DNA of 32,000 nucleotides, from NCBI RefSeq assembly GCF_000284115.1, contig NC_017080.1:780001-812000 (forward strand). Reading direction: 5' to 3'. The DNA comes from Phycisphaera mikurensis NBRC 102666 (GTDB lineage Bacteria; Planctomycetota; Phycisphaerae; Phycisphaerales; Phycisphaeraceae). A program made the position numbers and the translations under genes. Within the stretch, counting starts at the first letter, position 1; each line of letters opens with the position of its first letter. Below are positions 3,356 through 18,466 of this stretch, in pieces. Below the pieces are notes generated by a model. That model had not been told where the DNA came from. It saw nothing but the letters and a program-made list of their open reading frames with translations, and did no database searches.

Positions 3356-3625
3356 GGAGCGACCCCGGGGCGCGCCGTCGCTTTCGCCCCGTCGCCGCCG
3401 AAGAGGACGCGGCCCCGCCTCCCGCTCCGCGGCGGGACCCGCTCCGGGCGGGTGCGGCGTGATACCCTCCCGCGCATCTGCCGCGACGGAACCCCGAGCC
3501 GGGGTCGCGGCGGGGCGTTCACCGTTCCTCTGCGGTCTTGGGCTCCGGACCCCGACCCGCACGATCACCGGGGCATCGCATTGACCAACACCCGTTTCGC
3601 TTCCGCTCCGCACGCCGCCGCGGCC

Positions 3626-4568: not shown

Positions 4569-6029
4569 TTGCGCGGCGGCCTGATAGGTTCGGGTTGCGT
4601 CGCGATCCTTTGGGGGTTTTTCTTGCTCATCGAACAAGCCCGCCTGGCGGGCGGCGTCTACGGGCTCTCGGGTCGGTTCAGGCCGGGATCCATCCGCGAC
4701 GTCGCGTGGCGGGCGGAGCAGCTCGCGGCCGCTTTGGTGGAGGCCGGCGTGCTCGGGCCGGGGACGGAGGTGGTCATTGCCGGGGTCGGTCCCGCCGGCG
4801 TCGCCGCGACGGGGGCGTGCCTGGCGGCCGGGGCGACCGTGACGGTGGTCAGCGGAGCGAGCGGCCGCCAGTCGATCCTCCAGCGATCGACGCGGCACGT
4901 CTGCCCCACCACCTTCGACCACCCGATGGACCACTGGCAGATCGGCTCGCACCCGCTCCCGGGGCAGGACGCGGCGGTGGCCTGGGCGGCCGGGCCCGCC
5001 GACCGACTTCTCGCGGGCTTCGCCGCCAACCTCAACCGGTGGCTGCGGGAGACGCCACGCTTCCGCGTCGTCGGATCGACGGATTTCGTGGGCTACGAGG
5101 CGGTCGGGGGGGGCGGGGTCGTCGTCTCGTGCTCGGGCGGGCTGACGCTGCGGGCCGACCTGCTGCTGCTCGCGACGGGCATCGGCTTCTCGCGGCGGGG
5201 CGTTCCGGGCAGCTTGTTCCGGAGCCGCGACTACTGGGAGAGCCACGACACCGTGTTCAAGCCGCCGCGGGCCGCGGGCCTGCGGGTGCTGGTTGCCGGC
5301 GGCGGCGACGGGGCGTTGAACGACCTTGTGCGGCTGCTCACCGGGCGGGCGAGCGTCGACACGCTCCTGGAGGAGGTGGACCGGTGCCTGCCGCTCACCC
5401 TGGTCCGCGAGCACGCCGAGCACGCGTGGCGGGAGTTCGCGGCCGGCGGCGACGAGGCCGCCGAGCGGCGACGCCTCCGCGACCGCCAGCGGTGGCTGGA
5501 CGGGCACCTGGACGAGCTCTGGGGCCGGGCGGCGGTGCGGGCCGTGATCGGCGACGCGGCGTTGCCGCTCACCCGGCGCTCTTGCGTGAGGCTGGTGACC
5601 CGCGAGGCCTGGTTCGACGACGCTTACCTCGTGAACCGGCTGCTCGCCGGGCTGCTCCTGCGCTTCCTCGGGGAGGACCTGCCCGGCCGCAACGGCGGCC
5701 TCGTGCCGCTGCTTTGCGGTTGGGAGGTCGCCGGTTGCGTCGGCCTGAACGGTCATGCGTGCGAAGGCGACCGCCACCTTTGCGCCAAGCATCCCCACCG
5801 CGTGCGCTTCCGCCGCTGGCCCGGGGCCGCGCGTCCGGACGCCGACCGGCCCTTCCTGAGCACCCGCGGGGTCGAGGGCGACTACGACCGCGTGCTCCTG
5901 CGGATCGGGGCGGATGCCGCGGCGGGGGCGGGGGCGGGGGCGGACGCGGGGGTCGCCGCCGCCCCGGCCGGGGCCGCGGAGCACCGCCACGTCCCGCCGT
6001 TCTATTCCCGCGGCTTCCGCGACGGCTGA
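4569..6029 (+). CDS. FAD/NAD(P)-binding oxidoreductase with a thioredoxin-reductase-like two-Rossmann layout; function unknown
   Basis: Motifs occur in TrxR-like order: VVIAGVGPAGVAATGACLAAG (~4771-4812), LLLLATGIG, then RVLVAGGGDGALNDLVRLL (~5281-5325). There is no redox CxxC between them. No ATG is available near the start. Candidate starts are TTG 4569, which would add a hydrophobic LIGSGCVAILWGFFLLI segment, or TTG 4623. Confidence 0.6.
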   Translation: MRGGLIGSGCVAILWGFFLLIEQARLAGGVYGLSGRFRPGSIRDVAWRAEQLAAALVEAGVLGPGTEVVIAGVGPAGVAATGACLAAGATVTVVSGASGRQSILQRSTRHVCPTTFDHPMDHWQIGSHPLPGQDAAVAWAAGPADRLLAGFAANLNRWLRETPRFRVVGSTDFVGYEAVGGGGVVVSCSGGLTLRADLLLLATGIGFSRRGVPGSLFRSRDYWESHDTVFKPPRAAGLRVLVAGGGDGALNDLVRLLTGRASVDTLLEEVDRCLPLTLVREHAEHAWREFAAGGDEAAERRRLRDRQRWLDGHLDELWGRAAVRAVIGDAALPLTRRSCVRLVTREAWFDDAYLVNRLLAGLLLRFLGEDLPGRNGGLVPLLCGWEVAGCVGLNGHACEGDRHLCAKHPHRVRFRRWPGAARPDADRPFLSTRGVEGDYDRVLLRIGADAAAGAGAGADAGVAAAPAGAAEHRHVPPFYSRGFRDG

Positions 6030-11847: not shown

Positions 11848-12744
11848 ATGCCGATGACCCGCTCCCTCCTCTTCGTCGCCGCCCTGGGTCTGCTCGTCGG
11901 GTGGATCCTCTGGCGGCTGCAGAGCGGCCCGCCGGCTTTCGCTTCCCTGCCGGGGCCGACCCGGAGCGTCGTCTACAAGACGACGCCGCAGGGCGAGCTG
12001 CGGCTGTTCCTCCACGAGCCCGCCGAGCGGGGCATCGGACCCGCCCCGGCGGTGCTGTTCTTCCACGGCGGCGGCTGGCTGAACGGCACGGCGACGCAGT
12101 TCGACGGCCAGGCCGGCCGGCTCGCGGACCGGGGCATCGTGGGGATCCAGGCCGAGTACCGCCTCGCGGACCCGCACGGCGCGACGCCCTTCGCGTCGCT
12201 CGCCGACGCGATCACGGCGATGCGGTACGTCCGCCGCCACGCGGCCGGGCTGGGCGTCGACCCCGGCCGCGTGGCCGCGGGCGGCGGCTCCGCCGGCGGC
12301 CACCTCGCCGCGGCGCTCGCGACGGCGACGGCGGAGGACTTGGACACCGACCCGCCCGCGGACCGCGGCGTCTCGTACCGGCCGGACGCGCTGATCCTCT
12401 TCAATCCGGTCTACGACAACGGCCCCGGCGGCTACGGCCACGAGCGGATCGGCGACCGCTACACCGACTTCTCGCCGCTTCACAACCTCCACGCCGGCAT
12501 GCCGCCGACGCTGGTGATGCTCGGCGACCGCGACGACCTCGTACCCGTCGCCACCGCGGAACGCTTCCGCGACGGCATGCGGGGCCTGGGCGTCCGCAGC
12601 GAGCTCATCGTCTACCCCGGCGAGACCCACGGCTTCTTCAACCCGCACCGCGGCCGCCGCGTCATGTACGAGCGGACGCTCGCGGCGACGGAGGCGTTCC
12701 TCGCGTCGCTGGGCTGGATCGGGCCGCCGCCGGGCTCGCGTTGA
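11848..12744 (+). CDS. Alpha/beta hydrolase (HSL-type esterase/lipase fold) with an N-terminal anchor or signal
   Basis: HGGGW oxyanion motif (VLFFHGGGWLNG), nucleophile elbow GGSAGGH, and hydrophobic N-terminus SLLFVAALGLLVGWILW. Confidence 0.8.
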   Translation: MPMTRSLLFVAALGLLVGWILWRLQSGPPAFASLPGPTRSVVYKTTPQGELRLFLHEPAERGIGPAPAVLFFHGGGWLNGTATQFDGQAGRLADRGIVGIQAEYRLADPHGATPFASLADAITAMRYVRRHAAGLGVDPGRVAAGGGSAGGHLAAALATATAEDLDTDPPADRGVSYRPDALILFNPVYDNGPGGYGHERIGDRYTDFSPLHNLHAGMPPTLVMLGDRDDLVPVATAERFRDGMRGLGVRSELIVYPGETHGFFNPHRGRRVMYERTLAATEAFLASLGWIGPPPGSR

Positions 12745-12770
12745 GGGAAACCGGGGGAGCACCGCGACGC

Positions 12771-12799
12771 TCGACGCGTTCATGATAATCGGTTATCAT
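12771..12799 (+). promoter_or_regulatory. Putative promoter (TCGACG-17 nt-TATCAT) overlapped by the perfect palindrome ATGATAA-TCGG-TTATCAT (12782-12799), a Fur/Zur-box-like operator
   Basis: This is the only strongly AT-rich palindrome I saw in the window. Its TGATAA/TTATCA half-sites match the classic Fur-family half-site. It lies upstream of the first H-X9-DG/PEP-CTERM module. Confidence 0.5.
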
Positions 12800-12805
12800 G
12801 GTGCG

Positions 12806-12922
12806 GTGCCCAAGCCGCCCCCGAGCCACGAAGCCGTTCGATCCGCGAGTCCCGCGGCGCGGGCGGCAGCGGGTGCGCAGCGCCCGGGCCGCGGTGCCGC
12901 GTGCGGCAGGGCCGGCCGGTGA
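12806..12922 (+). pseudogene. 38-codon remnant of a Fur-family regulator paralogue (internal deletion)
   Basis: From GTG 12806 it reads VPKPPPSHEAVRS..., versus the intact regulator VPRSSPHAASVER... from GTG 16065. The preceding 22 nt are 19/22 identical (TCGGTTATCATGGTGCGGTGCC versus TCGCCTATCATGGAGCGGTGCC). Its TGA (12920-12922) overlaps the next ATG, mirroring the TTTGA overlap at 16439-16442. Confidence 0.45.
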
Positions 12923-13152
12923 TGGGCGCCCGCTCCCTCCTCGCTCCGCTGCTGGCGCCCGCGCAGCCGTCCGCCCCCGGCGGCCCGGCCGGGTGGCTGG
13001 CGCACGCTCCCGGCGCGTCCGGGAGCCGCGGCGGCGCGACCCGCCACGCGGCGACCCACGCCGCCGCGGTGTCGCCCGCGGAGGGTGCGTTGCGGAACCC
13101 GGGCACGCGTCTCCGCTCGCCAGGCCGCGGACCGCCCGCCGCGGACGCCTGA
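12922..13152 (+). pseudogene. Decayed paralogue (76 codons) of the small His/Cys-rich membrane protein at 16439..16825
   Basis: Shared segments are GGPAGWLAHA versus GGPAGLLHHRLAHA and the C-terminus GRGPPAADA* versus DRGPPAADV*, with near-identical DNA across the stop. The His tract is eroded, the CxxC is lost (NPG-TRLR versus DPGCTLCH), and prolines interrupt the N-terminal helix. Confidence 0.45.
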
Positions 13153-13192
13153 CCGGCGGCGCGTTGGCGCCCCGCTCTGCCCCGTCCGCGGC
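13138..13192. repeat. Hairpin GCCGCGGACG-N35-CGTCCGCGGC spanning the small-ORF stop
   Basis: Perfect 10-bp inverted repeat at 13138-13147 and 13183-13192. The same stem sequence occurs at the equivalent junction at 16811-16870. Confidence 0.6.
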
Positions 13193-13241
13193 CGCCACCG
13201 GCCGCCGGTCAACACCCGCCCTCGCTCCAAGGAGGTGTGCC

Positions 13242-14021
13242 CTGCGCATCCGCTCCCCGGCTCCCGCTCCGCGCGCCTTCACGCTCATTGAGCTGCTGGT
13301 CGTCGTCTCCATCATCGCCCTGCTCATCGGGCTCCTGCTGCCGGCGCTGGGCAGCGCCCGCCGGACCGCTTCGGCGCTGGCCGACCTCAGCAACCTCAAG
13401 CAGATGGAGATCGCCCACGCCAGCTACGCCGTCGACAACGACAGCCGGCTGATCCAAGCCAACCTCGCGCACGGCGGCGTCGTTCACTACAACCCCGACG
13501 GCTCGCCCGTCGTGCCGTGGATCGACACGCTGCGGACGTACTACGCGGCCGATCTGGTCGTGCGCTCGCCGCTGGACGACAGCCCCCACTGGGGGCCGTT
13601 CCCCGCGGGCGAGCCCATCCCGGGCGCCCCGGCCAACCAGCGGCGCGTGACCAGCTACGGGATCAACACCTTCACCGACCCGGTGCTGGTGCCCTGGGGC
13701 CCGGGCTTCGTCTCGCCCTTCCGCGGGTACACGATGGACACGATCCGCCGACCGGCGTCGGTGGTGCACTTCCTGCCGATGGCCCACGGGGGCACGTTCG
13801 CCGGCGCCGACCACCCCCACGCCGAGGAGTGGCTGGTGCATCCCGTGCCCGCGTTCGCGGCGCAGGGCCAGGCGCAGATCAACGCCGTCAAGGGCGAGCC
13901 GGGCACCCCGGCCGCCGTCGCCAACTGGGGCTTCCTGGACGGCCACGCCGCCGCCACCGGGTTCTCGGAGCTGGTGACCGACCTCCAGCTCAACCGCCTC
14001 GACCCCGACCGCGCCCCCTGA
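13242..14021 (+). CDS. Prepilin-type N-terminal methylation-domain protein, DUF1559/H-X9-DG-like (copy A; the H of the motif is replaced)
   Basis: [30 protein letters not shown]. The C-terminal motif is ...PAAVANWGFLDGHAA, where the DG is kept but P replaces H. RBS AAGGAGG (13229-13235) lies 6 nt before an in-frame CTG at 13242. There is no ATG/GTG/TTG between the RBS and the leader, so the start codon is uncertain. The upstream part of track ORF 12798..14021 is non-coding-like. Confidence 0.8.
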   Translation: MRIRSPAPAPRAFTLIELLVVVSIIALLIGLLLPALGSARRTASALADLSNLKQMEIAHASYAVDNDSRLIQANLAHGGVVHYNPDGSPVVPWIDTLRTYYAADLVVRSPLDDSPHWGPFPAGEPIPGAPANQRRVTSYGINTFTDPVLVPWGPGFVSPFRGYTMDTIRRPASVVHFLPMAHGGTFAGADHPHAEEWLVHPVPAFAAQGQAQINAVKGEPGTPAAVANWGFLDGHAAATGFSELVTDLQLNRLDPDRAP

Positions 14022-14062
14022 GCGCGGCGGACCCCTTCCAAACGCAATCCACAAGGAACGCC

Positions 14063-14830
14063 ATGCAACACACGATCGCCCCCACCCTCCTCCTCGCCGC
14101 CGCCCTGGCTCCCGCGGCCGCCCACGCCGAGCACGCCGACGCGATGCTCCTGGTTGGCCCCGACGGGCGGCTGACCACCGGCCTCTACAGCTTCGACACC
14201 GCGACGGTGCTCGCCACCGACGAGCGCGTCTTCGAGGGCGAGTTCGACGCCTTCGGCATCGTCGCCGAGCCGGGCTTCAACGCGCTGCCGGCCGGGAGCG
14301 CCGGCCTCCCCGCGGGCTTCTCGGCGCTGCCGGGCAACACGCCGGTGACCTTCACCGGCCGCGCCTTCACCCAAGCCGGCGTGACGAGCAACCTCTGGCA
14401 CTGGGACGCCACCGGCCCGGTGGACTTCCAGCCGGTGACGGCTCCGACCTCGCTGGACATCAAGCGCTCGGTCTTCACCACCAACCTCGACGGCGGCTCC
14501 GCCGACGCGGCGGGCTTCCTCATCGACACCACCGGCGCCAGCGGCTCGCTGCACCGGCACGTGAGCTTCCAGGTGAACGACGGCGACGGCGACCCGCTCG
14601 TGCAGTCCGCGGCCGCGGGCTTCTACCTCTGGTCGATGGAGCTGGCCGTCGGATCCGCCCTCACCGCCGAGCCGATCTTCTTCGTCCACGGCCTCGGCGT
14701 CGAGAACGAGGCGCTCCACGAGCAGGCGATTGCCTTCGTCGAGGCCAACGTCGTGCCCGAGCCCACGGCGGCCCTGGGCCTGGCCGCCGCCGGCGTCGTG
14801 CTGCTGTCCCGCCGCCGCGCTGCGGCCTGA
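14063..14830 (+). CDS. PEP-CTERM-anchored secreted protein (A1)
   Basis: ATG 14063 follows AAGGAA. The signal peptide is MQHTIAPTLLLAAALAPAAAHA. The C-terminus VPEPTAALGLAAAGVVLLSRRRAAA shows the PEP motif, a TM segment and an Arg cluster. Confidence 0.85.
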   Translation: MQHTIAPTLLLAAALAPAAAHAEHADAMLLVGPDGRLTTGLYSFDTATVLATDERVFEGEFDAFGIVAEPGFNALPAGSAGLPAGFSALPGNTPVTFTGRAFTQAGVTSNLWHWDATGPVDFQPVTAPTSLDIKRSVFTTNLDGGSADAAGFLIDTTGASGSLHRHVSFQVNDGDGDPLVQSAAAGFYLWSMELAVGSALTAEPIFFVHGLGVENEALHEQAIAFVEANVVPEPTAALGLAAAGVVLLSRRRAAA

Positions 14831-14916
14831 TCGACCCCGACTTCGCGATCGGGCCCGTCGCCCGGTGGCTCCCCCGGCCGCTTCACCGCCGGCCGCCTCT
14901 CCGAAAATAACGAACC

Positions 14917-15861
14917 ATGAAACGACCCTCCGCCTTCCGCTCCCTCGCTTCGTTCCGCTCGCTCTGCTGCGTGTGCACCACCGCGGCGGCCGCCGCGGCC
15001 GCCACGGCCCCCGCCCCCGCGGACGCCTCGCCCGAGCCGGGCATCAACATCTACCACGTCGGCGTCGACGCCGGCGCGACCATCGGCTTCGGCCCGTACA
15101 AGGGCCTGGTCAACCCCAACGAGAACCGGCTCACGCTGTTCCTCTCGCACACCTTCACCGACACGCCCACCAGCAACCACTACCACCGCATCGGCTCGTA
15201 CGCCTACACCGGCGGTCCCGCCGACCCGCAGCCGGGCTTCTCGGGGAACAACCGGCTGCCCGAGCCCTACCAGCAGGACGACGGGCTGTCGCTGCTGCCC
15301 GGCTCGGGGGTCTTCGCGGGCAAGATGGTTTCGGGCCTGGGTCCCGCCGCCTTCCCCGGGGACGAGATCGAGGAGGAGTACGGCGACCTCACCGTGCGTC
15401 CCATCGACCAGCTGCTGCCCTTCGATGGACGCCTCGCCGACCCCGACGACCCGCGGGGCCAGCCCTTCCACCCCGGCCACTACCTGGTCAACGCCTCCGG
15501 GGGCGTCTACAAGACGCCGATCGCCGGCACCACCGTCGGGCTCCGGCTGACGGAGCTCTCTGAAGGCTTGGGCGTGTTCGACGCGAGCGGGAACGAGCTG
15601 TTCACCGGCGTCGGCGAGGTGCTCACCCTCGGCGACAGCGCCGACTGGTCCTTCTCGCCGGTCTTCGCGGCGGAAGGCGACGCCACGCCCGGCACCGCCT
15701 TCTCGGCGACCTTCGAGCTGACGGACCTCTCCGCCACGCCCACCTACGGCGACTCCGCCGCCTTCTCGGTGGACTTCGTGGCCGTGCCCGAGCCCACCGC
15801 GGCCCTCGCCCTCGCCCTCGCCGGCGTCGGCCTGCTCGGCCGGCGGCGCCGCCACGGCTGA
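14917..15861 (+). CDS. PEP-CTERM-anchored secreted protein (A2)
   Basis: The C-terminus is VPEPTAALALALAGVGLLGRRRRHG. There is an N-terminal hydrophobic/Ala-rich signal. His-containing motifs are SNHYHRIGSY and FHPGHY. Confidence 0.85.
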   Translation: MKRPSAFRSLASFRSLCCVCTTAAAAAAATAPAPADASPEPGINIYHVGVDAGATIGFGPYKGLVNPNENRLTLFLSHTFTDTPTSNHYHRIGSYAYTGGPADPQPGFSGNNRLPEPYQQDDGLSLLPGSGVFAGKMVSGLGPAAFPGDEIEEEYGDLTVRPIDQLLPFDGRLADPDDPRGQPFHPGHYLVNASGGVYKTPIAGTTVGLRLTELSEGLGVFDASGNELFTGVGEVLTLGDSADWSFSPVFAAEGDATPGTAFSATFELTDLSATPTYGDSAAFSVDFVAVPEPTAALALALAGVGLLGRRRRHG

Positions 15862-16030
15862 GCTTTCTCGTCGCGCCGGCTCCCGCACCGGGGGCCGGCG
15901 CCTTGGACGCCGCACGCCGCGGCGTCCGCCAAGAGGGTCCGCGACGGGCGCCCGAGGGTCCGCCCGCGCGGTCGGCTCCGAGGGCCGCGGATCCCCGTGT
16001 CGCGACGCGGGCGATCGGGTGGGTTTCTTC

Positions 16031-16058
16031 TTGGCGTCTCGCGAGAGTCGCCTATCAT
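16031..16058 (+). promoter_or_regulatory. Putative promoter of the Fur-family gene (TTGGCG-16 nt-TATCAT), paralogous to the block at 12771-12799
   Basis: TATCATGGAGCGGTGCC (16053-16069) matches TATCATGGTGCGGTGCC (12794-12810). Here the left half of the palindrome is degenerate (GAGAG versus GATAA). Confidence 0.4.
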
Positions 16059-16064
16059 GGAGCG

Positions 16065-16442
16065 GTGCCTCGCTCCTCCCCCCACGCCGCCTCCGTCGAG
16101 CGACTGCTGCGCGACGCGGCGGGGCCGATGTCGGCGGCGGAGGTGGCCGAGGCGCTGGCCCACACGGGGATCGGGATCGCGACCGTCTACCGGCTGCTCG
16201 GCCGCGGCGCGGAGGAGGGCCGGTACGTCGCGGTCGAGATGCCGCACGGCCCGGCCCGGTACGAGCCGGCGGACCGTCCGCATCACCACCACTTCGCGTG
16301 CACCGCGTGCGAGGCGGTGTACGACGTGCCCGGCTGCACGGGGAACCTCAAGAAGCTGGTGCCCGAGGGCTTCACGCTCGACGCCCACGAGATCCTGCTG
16401 ACCGGCCGGTGCGCGGACTGCAGCGCGGGGTCGAAGCTTTGA
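16065..16442 (+). CDS. Fur-family metalloregulator (Fur/Zur/Nur-type, 125 aa)
   Basis: Winged helix MSAAEVAEALAHTGIGIATVYRLLGRGAEEGRYVAVE, then RPHHHHFACTACEAVYDV and LLTGRCADC (HHHHFxCxxC...CxxC). The GTG 16065 start is inferred. The track start (TTG 15903) adds an Arg/Ala/Pro-rich stretch that looks non-coding. Confidence 0.8.
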   Translation: MPRSSPHAASVERLLRDAAGPMSAAEVAEALAHTGIGIATVYRLLGRGAEEGRYVAVEMPHGPARYEPADRPHHHHFACTACEAVYDVPGCTGNLKKLVPEGFTLDAHEILLTGRCADCSAGSKL

Positions 16443-16825
16443 GCGTCACGCGACCGCTCCTGTTCCTGGTCGCCGCCGCGCTCCTGCTGAGCCTCGGCGG
16501 CCCCGCCGGCCTGCTGCACCATCGGCTGGCTCACGCGGGCGGCCACGCCGCGGCTCACGGCGGGCACGGCCACGCGCACGCTCATGCGGACGCTCCCGCT
16601 TCGCCGGCTCCCGACGAGCCCGCGGACCCGCAGGAGCCAGCCGACCCGGGCTGCACGCTCTGCCACGCCCTCGCGCACCCGCTCGCGGTGCCGCCGCAGC
16701 CGGTCGTCGCGGCCCCGCTCCCGCCGCTGGGCGCGGCGGTGCGCGCTGCCCGGCCCCGGTCGGTCTACGCGACCTCTCAACGGAGCCGTCCGCCGGACCG
16801 CGGACCGCCCGCCGCGGACGTCTAA
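16439..16825 (+). CDS. Small membrane-anchored His-rich/CxxC protein (128 aa), DUF2946-like by motif
   Basis: TTG 16439 overlaps the regulator stop (TTTGA). The sequence is SVTRPLLFLVAAALLLSLGG (TM), then HHRLAHAGGHAAAHGGHGHAHAHAD, then a Pro/Asp/Glu linker and GCTLCHALAHPLAVPP. Confidence 0.65.
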   Translation: MSVTRPLLFLVAAALLLSLGGPAGLLHHRLAHAGGHAAAHGGHGHAHAHADAPASPAPDEPADPQEPADPGCTLCHALAHPLAVPPQPVVAAPLPPLGAAVRAARPRSVYATSQRSRPPDRGPPAADV

Positions 16826-16870
16826 GCGGCGGCGCCCCTGCGCGCCGCTCCGTCTCGCTCCGTCCGCGGC
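16811..16870. repeat. Hairpin GCCGCGGACG-N40-CGTCCGCGGC spanning the small-ORF stop
   Basis: Perfect 10-bp inverted repeat at 16811-16820 and 16861-16870, homologous to 13138-13192. Confidence 0.6.
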
Positions 16871-16933
16871 CCCCGGCTCCTCGCTGAGGGGCGGTCTCGC
16901 GGAACCCGGTCTCCCTGCTCTCCAACGGAAGTC

Positions 16934-17728
16934 GTGCCCGTGCGCACCCGCACCCCCGCCGCCCCCTCGGCGACGGCCTTCACGCTCATCGAGCTGCTGG
17001 TCGTCATCTCCATCATCGCCCTGCTGATCGGGCTGCTGCTGCCGGCGTTGGGCGCGGCGCGGGAGACCAGCCGGATGGCCAAGTGCCTCAGCAACAACCG
17101 GCAGATGGCGATCTCGACGGTCAACTTCGCCTACGCCGGTGCGCAGCCCGTGCGTCCGGCCGGCGCGTCCCGCGACGCGTCGCTGCTGCCCAGCGTCGGC
17201 TTCAGCCACGGCGGCAGCACCTACTCCGAGCAGGGGTCGTGGTTCTTCCTGCTGCAGGACTTCTCCGACGGAACGCTCGCCTGGCGGTGCGACTCCGACG
17301 AGAGCCCCGCGTGGGAGACGCCCCAGGGCAGCCCGTCGCGGCTGCGCCGGGTGAGCTACGCCACCAACTTCCTGTTGAGCGGCTTGAGCAGATCGATCGC
17401 GCCCTCGGGCCGGCCCTACCGCACCTACGCGGACCTGGACAAGATCCCGGCTCCGTCGGCCACCTGCTTCATCGTGGAGCTCGCCGAGGAAAGCTCGTCC
17501 GGCTTCGCGACGGCGGACCACGTCCACCCCGAGACCTGGACCGGCAACCTGCCGGCCATGCGGAACCAGATCGAGCTCGAGCAGCACGCCGGCAAGGCGA
17601 ACTACGCCTTCCTGGACGGCCACGCCTCCACCGAGCAGCGTGAGGGCGTGTACGACCTGGATCCCGCTTCGGTGATCCCCAACCTGATCTGGCGTGCGAA
17701 CGCCTTCGACCCGGAGGTCGCCCGCTAA
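16934..17728 (+). CDS. Prepilin-type N-terminal methylation-domain protein with an intact H-X9-DG motif (copy B)
   Basis: [30 protein letters not shown], and [12 protein letters not shown] at 17585-17620. The start is GTG 16934 or GTG 16940; GGAAG lies at 16927-16931. Confidence 0.85.
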
Positions 17729-17815: not shown

Positions 17816-18466
17816 ATGACGACCCTTTCCACCCTCAGCACCCGCGTCGCCCTCGGCGCCGCCGCCGCCGTCCTCGCCTTCCCCGCCGCGGCCGACGGCG
17901 AGGGCGACGGCGCCCCGCACGTCGCCGTCGCGCAGGAGCTCACCGGCGAGCTGGAGATCGAGTACGAGGTCGACGCCGGCCTCGACGAGTCCGTGACGCC
18001 GGTCCGGCTCACGCTCGACACCTCGGCTTACAGCACCCTCTACGCGGGCTTCCGCACCTTCCCCGTCAACGACACGCCCAGCCCCAACGACGACCTCGGC
18101 TTCGTGTCGGAGGTCGAGGGCGTCGACGAGGAGGGGGCGGCGCTCTCGGAGAGCATCGGCCTCCGTCTCCTGAGCAAGGACGCGGACTTCGCCATCTTCG
18201 ACGGCACGACCGAGATCCTCGCCTCGCCCAACGCGACCTTCAGCCTCGGCAACGCCTTCGACTTCCACCCGGTCTGGGTGCTCCGCACGCAGGACCAGGG
18301 CTTCTTGGGCACCTCCGACGCCTCGCTGGAGGTGTTCTCCGAGGCCACCGGTGACTCGATCGGCACCTTCGACGTCCGCCTGGCCGTCCCCGAGCCGACC
18401 ACCGCCGCGCTCTTCGGCATCGCCGGCACGCTGCTGCTCCGCCGCCGCCGCGACGCGCGGGCCTGA
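17816..18466 (+). CDS. PEP-CTERM-anchored secreted protein (B1), homologous to the C-terminal half of A2
   Basis: Signal MTTLSTLSTRVALGAAAAVLAFPAAA. The C-terminus is VPEPTTAALFGIAGTLLLRRRR. It shares the pattern GLRL..FD..LG..PV..E..GDS..F.V..VPEP with 14917..15861. Confidence 0.85.
   Translation: MTTLSTLSTRVALGAAAAVLAFPAAADGEGDGAPHVAVAQELTGELEIEYEVDAGLDESVTPVRLTLDTSAYSTLYAGFRTFPVNDTPSPNDDLGFVSEVEGVDEEGAALSESIGLRLLSKDADFAIFDGTTEILASPNATFSLGNAFDFHPVWVLRTQDQGFLGTSDASLEVFSEATGDSIGTFDVRLAVPEPTTAALFGIAGTLLLRRRRDARA

Follow-up and report, generated by a model that had tools for sequence, protein, structure and literature searches.

A predicted Zur operator heading a zepA operon in Phycisphaera mikurensis

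An AT-rich palindrome at 12781-12800 of the window (the whole 32,000-nt stretch of DNA that was analysed) is very probably a Zur box, the operator of a Zur protein encoded 3.3 kb downstream, and would control a zinc-starvation operon that includes the gene of the zinc-uptake exoprotein ZepA. This reading is based on the match between the palindrome and the boxes at the promoters of orthologous regulators, on the neighbours of these regulators in several phyla, and on the genes located behind the palindrome.

Results

An AT-rich palindrome overlaps a predicted promoter

An earlier note on this DNA had described an 18-bp palindrome with 7-nt arms and a 4-nt spacer at 12782-12799 (ATGATAATCGGTTATCAT), with A or T at 13 of 18 positions and beginning 38 nt after the stop codon of a hydrolase gene. 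This description was exact, and the arms can be extended by one base on each side, so that the perfect repeat is 8-4-8 (CATGATAA-TCGG-TTATCATG, 12781-12800) and carries the Fur-type half-sites TGATAA and TTATCA. The gene upstream encodes an alpha/beta hydrolase and ends at 12744 (TGA at 12742-12744). The GC content of the window is about 74%, and perfect inverted repeats with 7-nt arms number between 6 and 18 for each spacer length, AT-rich arms being found only in the repeat at 12781-12800. TGATAA and TTATCA are each present once in the 32 kb, and TATCAT only at 12794 and 16053. As the pattern of the palindrome occurred a single time in the window even at 3 mismatches, and in none of 100 shuffles, a chance match is excluded as its origin.

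The 16-bp core of the repeat (12783-12798, TGATAATCGGTTATCA) constitutes the predicted Zur box. When sites were scored with a 16-bp matrix built from ten sites, that of P. mikurensis among them, this core reached 33 bits, the highest value of all the sites scanned. The next site in the window scored 8.9 bits, and a second strong box was absent from the 32 kb.

A consensus scan predicted a sigma-70-like promoter on the forward strand at 12771-12799 (TCGACG-17-TATCAT), the -10 element of which (12794-12799) lies within the right arm of the box. A second promoter, assigned to zur, was predicted on the same strand at 16031-16058 (TTGGCG-16-TATCAT). These were the two matches found in the 5.2 kb between 12000 and 17200, compared to 0.1 expected by chance, which supports the earlier proposal that the palindrome overlaps a plausible promoter. 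The -35, box and -10 arrangement of the promoter at 12771-12799 was also seen in orthologous loci.

Gene content downstream of the palindrome

The gene map was drawn from codon-position GC profiles and from family searches (Pfam, NCBIfam); all the genes described in this section are on the forward strand. The first intact gene behind the palindrome (13164-14021) encodes a prepilin-type protein with an N_methyl domain (Pfam; TIGR02532), the motif FTLIELL and a C-terminal FLDGH. It is followed by the gene of a secreted PEP-CTERM protein (14063-14830; TIGR02595, 18.6 bits, cut-off 16), whose mature N-terminus reads HAEHAD..., and by zepA (14917-15861). The 314-aa ZepA is itself a PEP-CTERM protein, with a TIGR02595 match at residues 290-312 (20.5 bits, cut-off 16), and scored 272.9 bits against NCBIfam NF040463, the cut-off of which is 75. 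This family is called 'Zur-repressed PEP-CTERM protein', the same name that NCBI gives to the product. ZepA thus belongs to the ZepA/all3515 family and would represent the zinc-limitation response in this operon; under the accession WP_014436087.1 it is listed in the supplement of Sarasa-Buisan et al. (2024, PLoS Biol; PMC10957091). The three genes (module A) are separated by gaps of 41 nt and 86 nt, and no terminator was predicted in the module A region, which counts for little in a genome rich in GC; from the gaps and the lack of a predicted terminator we infer that they are co-transcribed.

Module B begins with zur (16065-16442), which codes for a Fur-family regulator of 125 aa. The next gene (16439-16825) encodes a small, His-rich membrane protein with a CxxCH motif that resembles DUF2946 and CzcI; its Pfam DUF2946 score (19 bits) is below the cut-off and its CzcI match is weak, and its L001 orthologue scores 32 bits for DUF2946, above the cut-off. 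A second prepilin-type H-X9-DG protein (16934-17728), 37.5% identical to its module-A paralogue, and another PEP-CTERM protein (17816-18466), with orthologues in L008 and L009, are encoded further downstream. DNA and protein comparisons between both modules were made by local blastn and tblastn. Across 12700-16100, two further assemblies were identical to the window.

A family of 67-nt direct repeats (14752-14818, 15783-15849 and 18385-18451) was also detected. They encode the PEP-CTERM sorting signal (VPEP, a hydrophobic stretch and RRRR) at the 3' end of three genes, and were rejected as a regulatory repeat.

The regulator belongs to a short subfamily associated with zinc genes

The product of 16065-16442 matched Pfam FUR (E = 2e-10) and showed 100% identity with the P. 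mikurensis protein named 'Fur family transcriptional regulator' at NCBI. Its GTG start codon is located 6 nt after TATCAT, and the length of the homologues (~125 aa) confirmed this start; zur is, therefore, probably leaderless. An alignment of 27 homologues defined a short (~125 aa) Fur subfamily in which the motifs PHHHHFxCxxC and GRCxxC are invariant, and it was used to retrieve 80 loci from reference genomes. Loci are cited here by L numbers.

The earlier note had placed a Fur-family gene 3.3 kb downstream of the palindrome, behind a paralogous promoter block. The gene is real, and the blocks at 12794-12810 and 16053-16069 share 16 of 17 bases, but the copy of the box at the zur promoter (16042-16057, CGAGAGTCGCCTATCA) is only degenerate (8 vs 33 bits). 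With 8.2 bits it ranked third in the window and by score alone is not separable from the background; its register matches that of TGAGAATCCGCTATCA in L083, the closest relative. Because of this degenerate box, autoregulation of zur is probably weak in P. mikurensis.

The sequence of the regulator is in itself insufficient to tell Zur from Fur. In a PDB search, Fur and Zur structures scored similarly and the top matches were Fur proteins, and the NCBIfam matches were to Fur and PerR only, both of them sub-threshold. The authors of PMC10957091 likewise state that sequence alone does not settle this question. The neighbours of the orthologues were more informative: ZnuA, ZnuC and ZnuB adjoin the regulator or its boxes in L012, L022 and L087, COG0523 GTPases in L002, L012, L020, L022 and L024, and ZIP transporters in L020 and L027. 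Altogether, zinc-type neighbours (ZnuABC, COG0523, ZIP or ZepA) recurred in at least 10 loci from several phyla. Because its orthologues adjoin znuABC, COG0523 and ZIP genes in other phyla, the short subfamily is assigned to Zur. Judged from these neighbours and from the presence of ZepA in the operon, the regulator encoded at 16065-16442 is Zur and not an iron Fur, which would make the palindrome a Zur box.

An iron-responsive (or Mn- or Ni-responsive) Fur box, bound by the same regulator and controlling an iron-starvation response, appears improbable. It would agree with the half-sites TGATAA and TTATCA, which the classical Fur box also has, and with the Fur proteins at the top of the solved-structure matches. 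In addition, feoAB (Pfam) adjoins the short Zur-type regulator in L090 (752-3180) and a probable FeoB, judged by its N-terminal sequence alone, is encoded near the regulator in L024 (9408-11312); both may be co-regulated or serve another metal, and they leave a slight possibility that iron is involved. However, the zinc-type neighbours in at least 10 loci point to zinc, the 16-bp spacing differs from that of the 15-bp Fur box, and a growth assay of ZepA homologues from three other lineages or phyla showed them to be specific for zinc (PMC10957091).

In three Zur-linked loci of different phyla, a gene for a WD40 beta-propeller protein was found directly 3' of that of the COG0523 GTPase (L012, 10434-11471; L020, 9988-11028; L024, 2352-3398).

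The box recurs at the promoters of orthologous regulators

With no more than 3 mismatches allowed, TGATAA-N4-TTATCA was matched in the 100 nt that precede the regulator gene in 25 of 36 loci; with no more than 2 mismatches, the number was 21. Both counts are non-circular, as the hexamer pair of P. mikurensis alone was used as query. An equally good match was found elsewhere in approximately 0.4-6% (mostly less than 2.6%) of the equal-sized windows of each locus. The spacing was strictly conserved among the 36 loci: with up to 2 mismatches, 21 of them matched with an N4 spacer, and no locus did so with N3 or N5.

The loci that combine the short Fur subfamily with the box belong to Phycisphaerae, Latescibacterota, Chloroflexota, Gemmatimonadota and beta/gamma-Proteobacteria. 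In the first three of these groups, the distance from the end of the box to the start codon is usually 8-9 nt, with a leaderless geometry. The boxes found 5' of the orthologous regulator were TGATAACTGATTATCA in L001, TGAGAACCGATTATCA in L002, TGATAAACGATTATCG in L003, TGAGAATCGATTATCA in L008 and L009, TGATAATTGATTATCA in L010, TGAGAATCGAGTATCA in L012 (Chloroflexota) and TGAGAATGCGTTATCA in L027 (Gemmatimonadota), whereas in Competibacteraceae the boxes are in tandem. In L020 (Latescibacterota) the box is identical to the 16-bp core of P. mikurensis. Their consensus, an even palindrome of 16 bp, has the halves TGAkAATC and GATTmTCA. Scans with the 16-bp matrix gave essentially one strong match per locus of ~16 kb, located at the regulator promoter; additional boxes precede znuC (L022), COG0523 genes (L022 and L024) or a prepilin-like gene.

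These data favour the Fur-family gene of the window as the likely cognate regulator, as had been suggested, since in at least five phyla the box accompanies the same Fur subfamily. They also bear on the earlier description of the palindrome as a Fur/Zur-box-like operator: the comparative evidence speaks for a Fur-family operator and narrows it to Zur, but the classical 15-bp 7-1-7 geometry does not apply, as the hexamers are separated by 4 bp instead of 3 bp and the box spans 16 bp.

Binding of the palindrome by another transcription factor, different from the neighbouring Fur-family protein, is likewise improbable, since the box is found at the own promoter of this Fur subfamily in at least five phyla, and the zinc-uptake genes beside the regulator also carry it.

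Boxes of the orthologues have arm substitutions, such as TGAGAA opposite TTATCA, which are non-compensatory; these changes break the complementarity of the arms and keep Fur-type half-sites, which fits binding by a protein better than a hairpin in the RNA. The least probable reading is the lack of any operator role, with the palindrome serving as an AT-rich promoter element or as a hairpin that terminates the hydrolase transcript: the RNA would fold into 9 bp (-11.9 kcal/mol, z = -3.4) at 38 nt past a stop codon, but a U-tract is absent (GGUGCGG follows), no terminator was called and the arm changes of the orthologues are non-compensatory, for which the terminator or hairpin was rejected, and against a mere promoter element stand the exclusion of a chance match and the left arm, which is outside the -10 and yet conserved as a Fur-type half-site.

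The same operon in related genomes

In L088 and L089, a box of 25 bits (TGATAACTGGTTATCG) is located just before the leaderless GTG of a prepilin-like gene, which is followed by a PEP-CTERM gene, zepA and zur. Their ZepA is 81% identical to that of P. mikurensis, and the DNA is 82% identical across 13255-15838; for the prepilin-like gene (13164-14021), the identity with its leaderless orthologue in L088 is also 82% at the DNA level. Boxes of 27 and 24 bits precede the equivalent module in L090 and L091, respectively. Orthologues of this prepilin-like gene come after zur in L001, L003 and L008-L011.

The box of the structural (zepA) operon was stronger than that of zur in all four genomes with both promoters: 33 vs 8 bits in the P. 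mikurensis window (12783 vs 16042), 25 vs 17 in L088 (1231 vs 4013), 27 vs 12 in L090 (6223 vs 3724) and 24 vs 16 in L091 (6180 vs 3696). These higher scores of the operon boxes suggest tight repression of the zepA operon and weak autoregulation of zur.

Two other arrangements were observed. In L011, a Phycisphaeraceae contig, a box (CGAGAACGGATTATCA, within 3591-3620) is located between zur and a leaderless prepilin-like gene, and no box was recognisable upstream of zur. In L092 (Planctomycetia), zepA follows a DUF1559 gene, and this DUF1559 gene is divergent from a longer Fur-family gene (171 aa). The intergenic region (5400-5580) lacks a TGATAA-type box and contains several TGCAAT-type palindromes, such as ATGCAATTGATTTGCAT, which may serve a distinct Fur-family lineage as another kind of operator.

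A probably decayed leader follows the promoter in P. mikurensis

Between the promoter and the prepilin-like coding sequence, P. mikurensis has approximately 360-430 nt of decayed sequence, a gap that is absent in L088. The leader holds a 38-codon ORF (12806-12922, forward strand), whose GTG follows TATCAT and ggtgcg with the same leaderless geometry as in module B. The distance from the box to this GTG is 8, a value that recurs at the zur promoter in L002, L008, L009, L010, L012, L020, L085 and L088, and the ORF resembles the 5' end of zur (VPKPPPSHEAV vs VPRSSPHAASV). A second ORF of 83 codons (12901-13152, forward strand), without any family match, is annotated as a gene in GCA_014207395.1. 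Its similarity to the DUF2946-like protein of module B is weak (E between 3e-6 and 8e-8, in a search space restricted to this small region), and its 3' end plus the spacer (13118-13196) shares 78.6% of the DNA sequence with the end of the DUF2946-like gene (16791-16874). Both ORFs look like decayed copies of zur and of the DUF2946 gene. The simplest reading would be that recombination joined a partial copy of the 5' part of module B (promoter, zur and DUF2946 gene) to module A, and that this copy later decayed, with loss of the regulator copy but retention of its promoter and operator.

An Rfam scan of 12000-17200 at E values up to 1 gave two chance-level matches only, and none in the leader (12800-13240), so a riboswitch or other known RNA in the leader was rejected.

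The ancestral start of the module-A prepilin-like gene has apparently been lost (13229-13300). A Shine-Dalgarno-like AAGGAGG sequence precedes a GTG at 13237 and, compared to module B (GTGCCCGTGCGC), a 1-base deletion shifts this GTG out of the FTLIELL frame. Gene callers start the gene at a TTG (13164), which results in an unusually long prepilin leader of 39 aa. Three assemblies concur on the sequence of this region.

Discussion

From the arrangement of the box, the promoter and the genes we infer Zur binding, a zinc response and the start of transcription as follows. Under zinc sufficiency, a zinc-loaded Zur dimer would occupy the half-sites TGATAA and TTATCA and, because the right half-site contains the -10 element TATCAT, the bound protein would occlude this element and block the access of RNA polymerase to the promoter. 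Under zinc scarcity, Zur would leave the DNA and transcription would start from about 12806, the transcript passing through the decayed leader into the genes of the prepilin-like protein, the PEP-CTERM protein and ZepA. In literature searches, zinc-dependent Zur binding or expression data for P. mikurensis were not found, nor was a study of a planctomycetal Zur regulon, and searches with the exact 16-mers returned nothing relevant. A ZnuA search for other zinc loci of P. mikurensis had no protein of this organism among its best 120 matches.

This type of switch is already known, and the site of P. mikurensis is a further example of it and not a new mechanism; the general picture of repression by the Fur family is unchanged. 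The analysis provides a concrete, testable predicted Zur operator and a minimal regulon for P. mikurensis and for Phycisphaerae generally, and it extends the published pairing of Zur with zepA to Planctomycetota. It also ties the even-centred 16-bp box to a short (~125 aa) Zur subfamily across several phyla, and assigns H-X9-DG proteins of the prepilin-like type, together with DUF2946 proteins, to a predicted Zur-controlled module, which gives a clue to these functionally uncharacterised families.

A broader proposal is put forward tentatively, as a possibility that we consider less likely than not. In Planctomycetota, Zur might control a conserved module formed by DUF2946/CzcI-like, prepilin-type H-X9-DG (DUF1559-like) and PEP-CTERM proteins, in some cases together with ZepA. 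This module could be the missing partner machinery for zinc capture by ZepA at the cell surface, and the even 16-bp box might mark a distinct, cross-phylum lineage of short Zur proteins. If this were true, zinc acquisition would be the first physiological role assigned to a protein of the prepilin-like H-X9-DG type, a planctomycetal family that is very large and uncharacterised.

The classical Fur box can be read as a 7-1-7 palindrome (TGATAATnATTATCA; Bacillus subtilis Fur/PerR/Zur family). The box of P. mikurensis has the same hexamer half-sites and would likewise be bound by a dimeric winged-helix regulator that represses by promoter occlusion. In contrast to the classical box, there is one more base pair between its half-sites and the metal is predicted to be zinc. 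Zur boxes are usually given as 7-1-7, 9-1-9 or 23-bp palindromes (PMC6103462).

The closest comparison is with the Zur sites of zepA (all3515) described by Sarasa-Buisan et al. (PMC10957091), which are a 15-bp 'motif 1' in cyanobacteria and a 16-bp 'motif 2' in Proteobacteria, such as TGATAATCCATTATCG upstream of zepA in Methyloversatilis. As in those sites, the predicted target belongs to the ZepA family, a FUR-family gene is located nearby, the palindrome lies over the promoter or directly behind it, and its length is the 16 bp of 'motif 2'. Unlike them, the box of P. mikurensis lies 2.1 kb 5' of zepA and heads a planctomycete operon of three genes. In that work P. mikurensis appears in a BLAST table only, and the computer search of the 200 bp upstream of zepA found no such motif in the PVC superphylum, because in P. 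mikurensis the box heads the operon rather than adjoining zepA.

In Anabaena sp. PCC 7120, the Zur box is a 15-bp 7-1-7 palindrome (TGATAATCATTATCA; consensus of Napolitano et al., 2012, as cited in PMC10957091, with the sites in its Table S3). There, ZepA is a zinc-uptake exoprotein that Zur represses through sites overlapping the -10 boxes, and gel shift assays showed the binding of Zur to the all3515 promoter (PMC10957091). The half-sites of P. mikurensis are near-identical to those of Anabaena and overlap the -10 in a similar way. In contrast to the odd-centred Anabaena box, that of P. mikurensis has 16 bp and an even centre, and its N4 spacer is strict in the subfamily.
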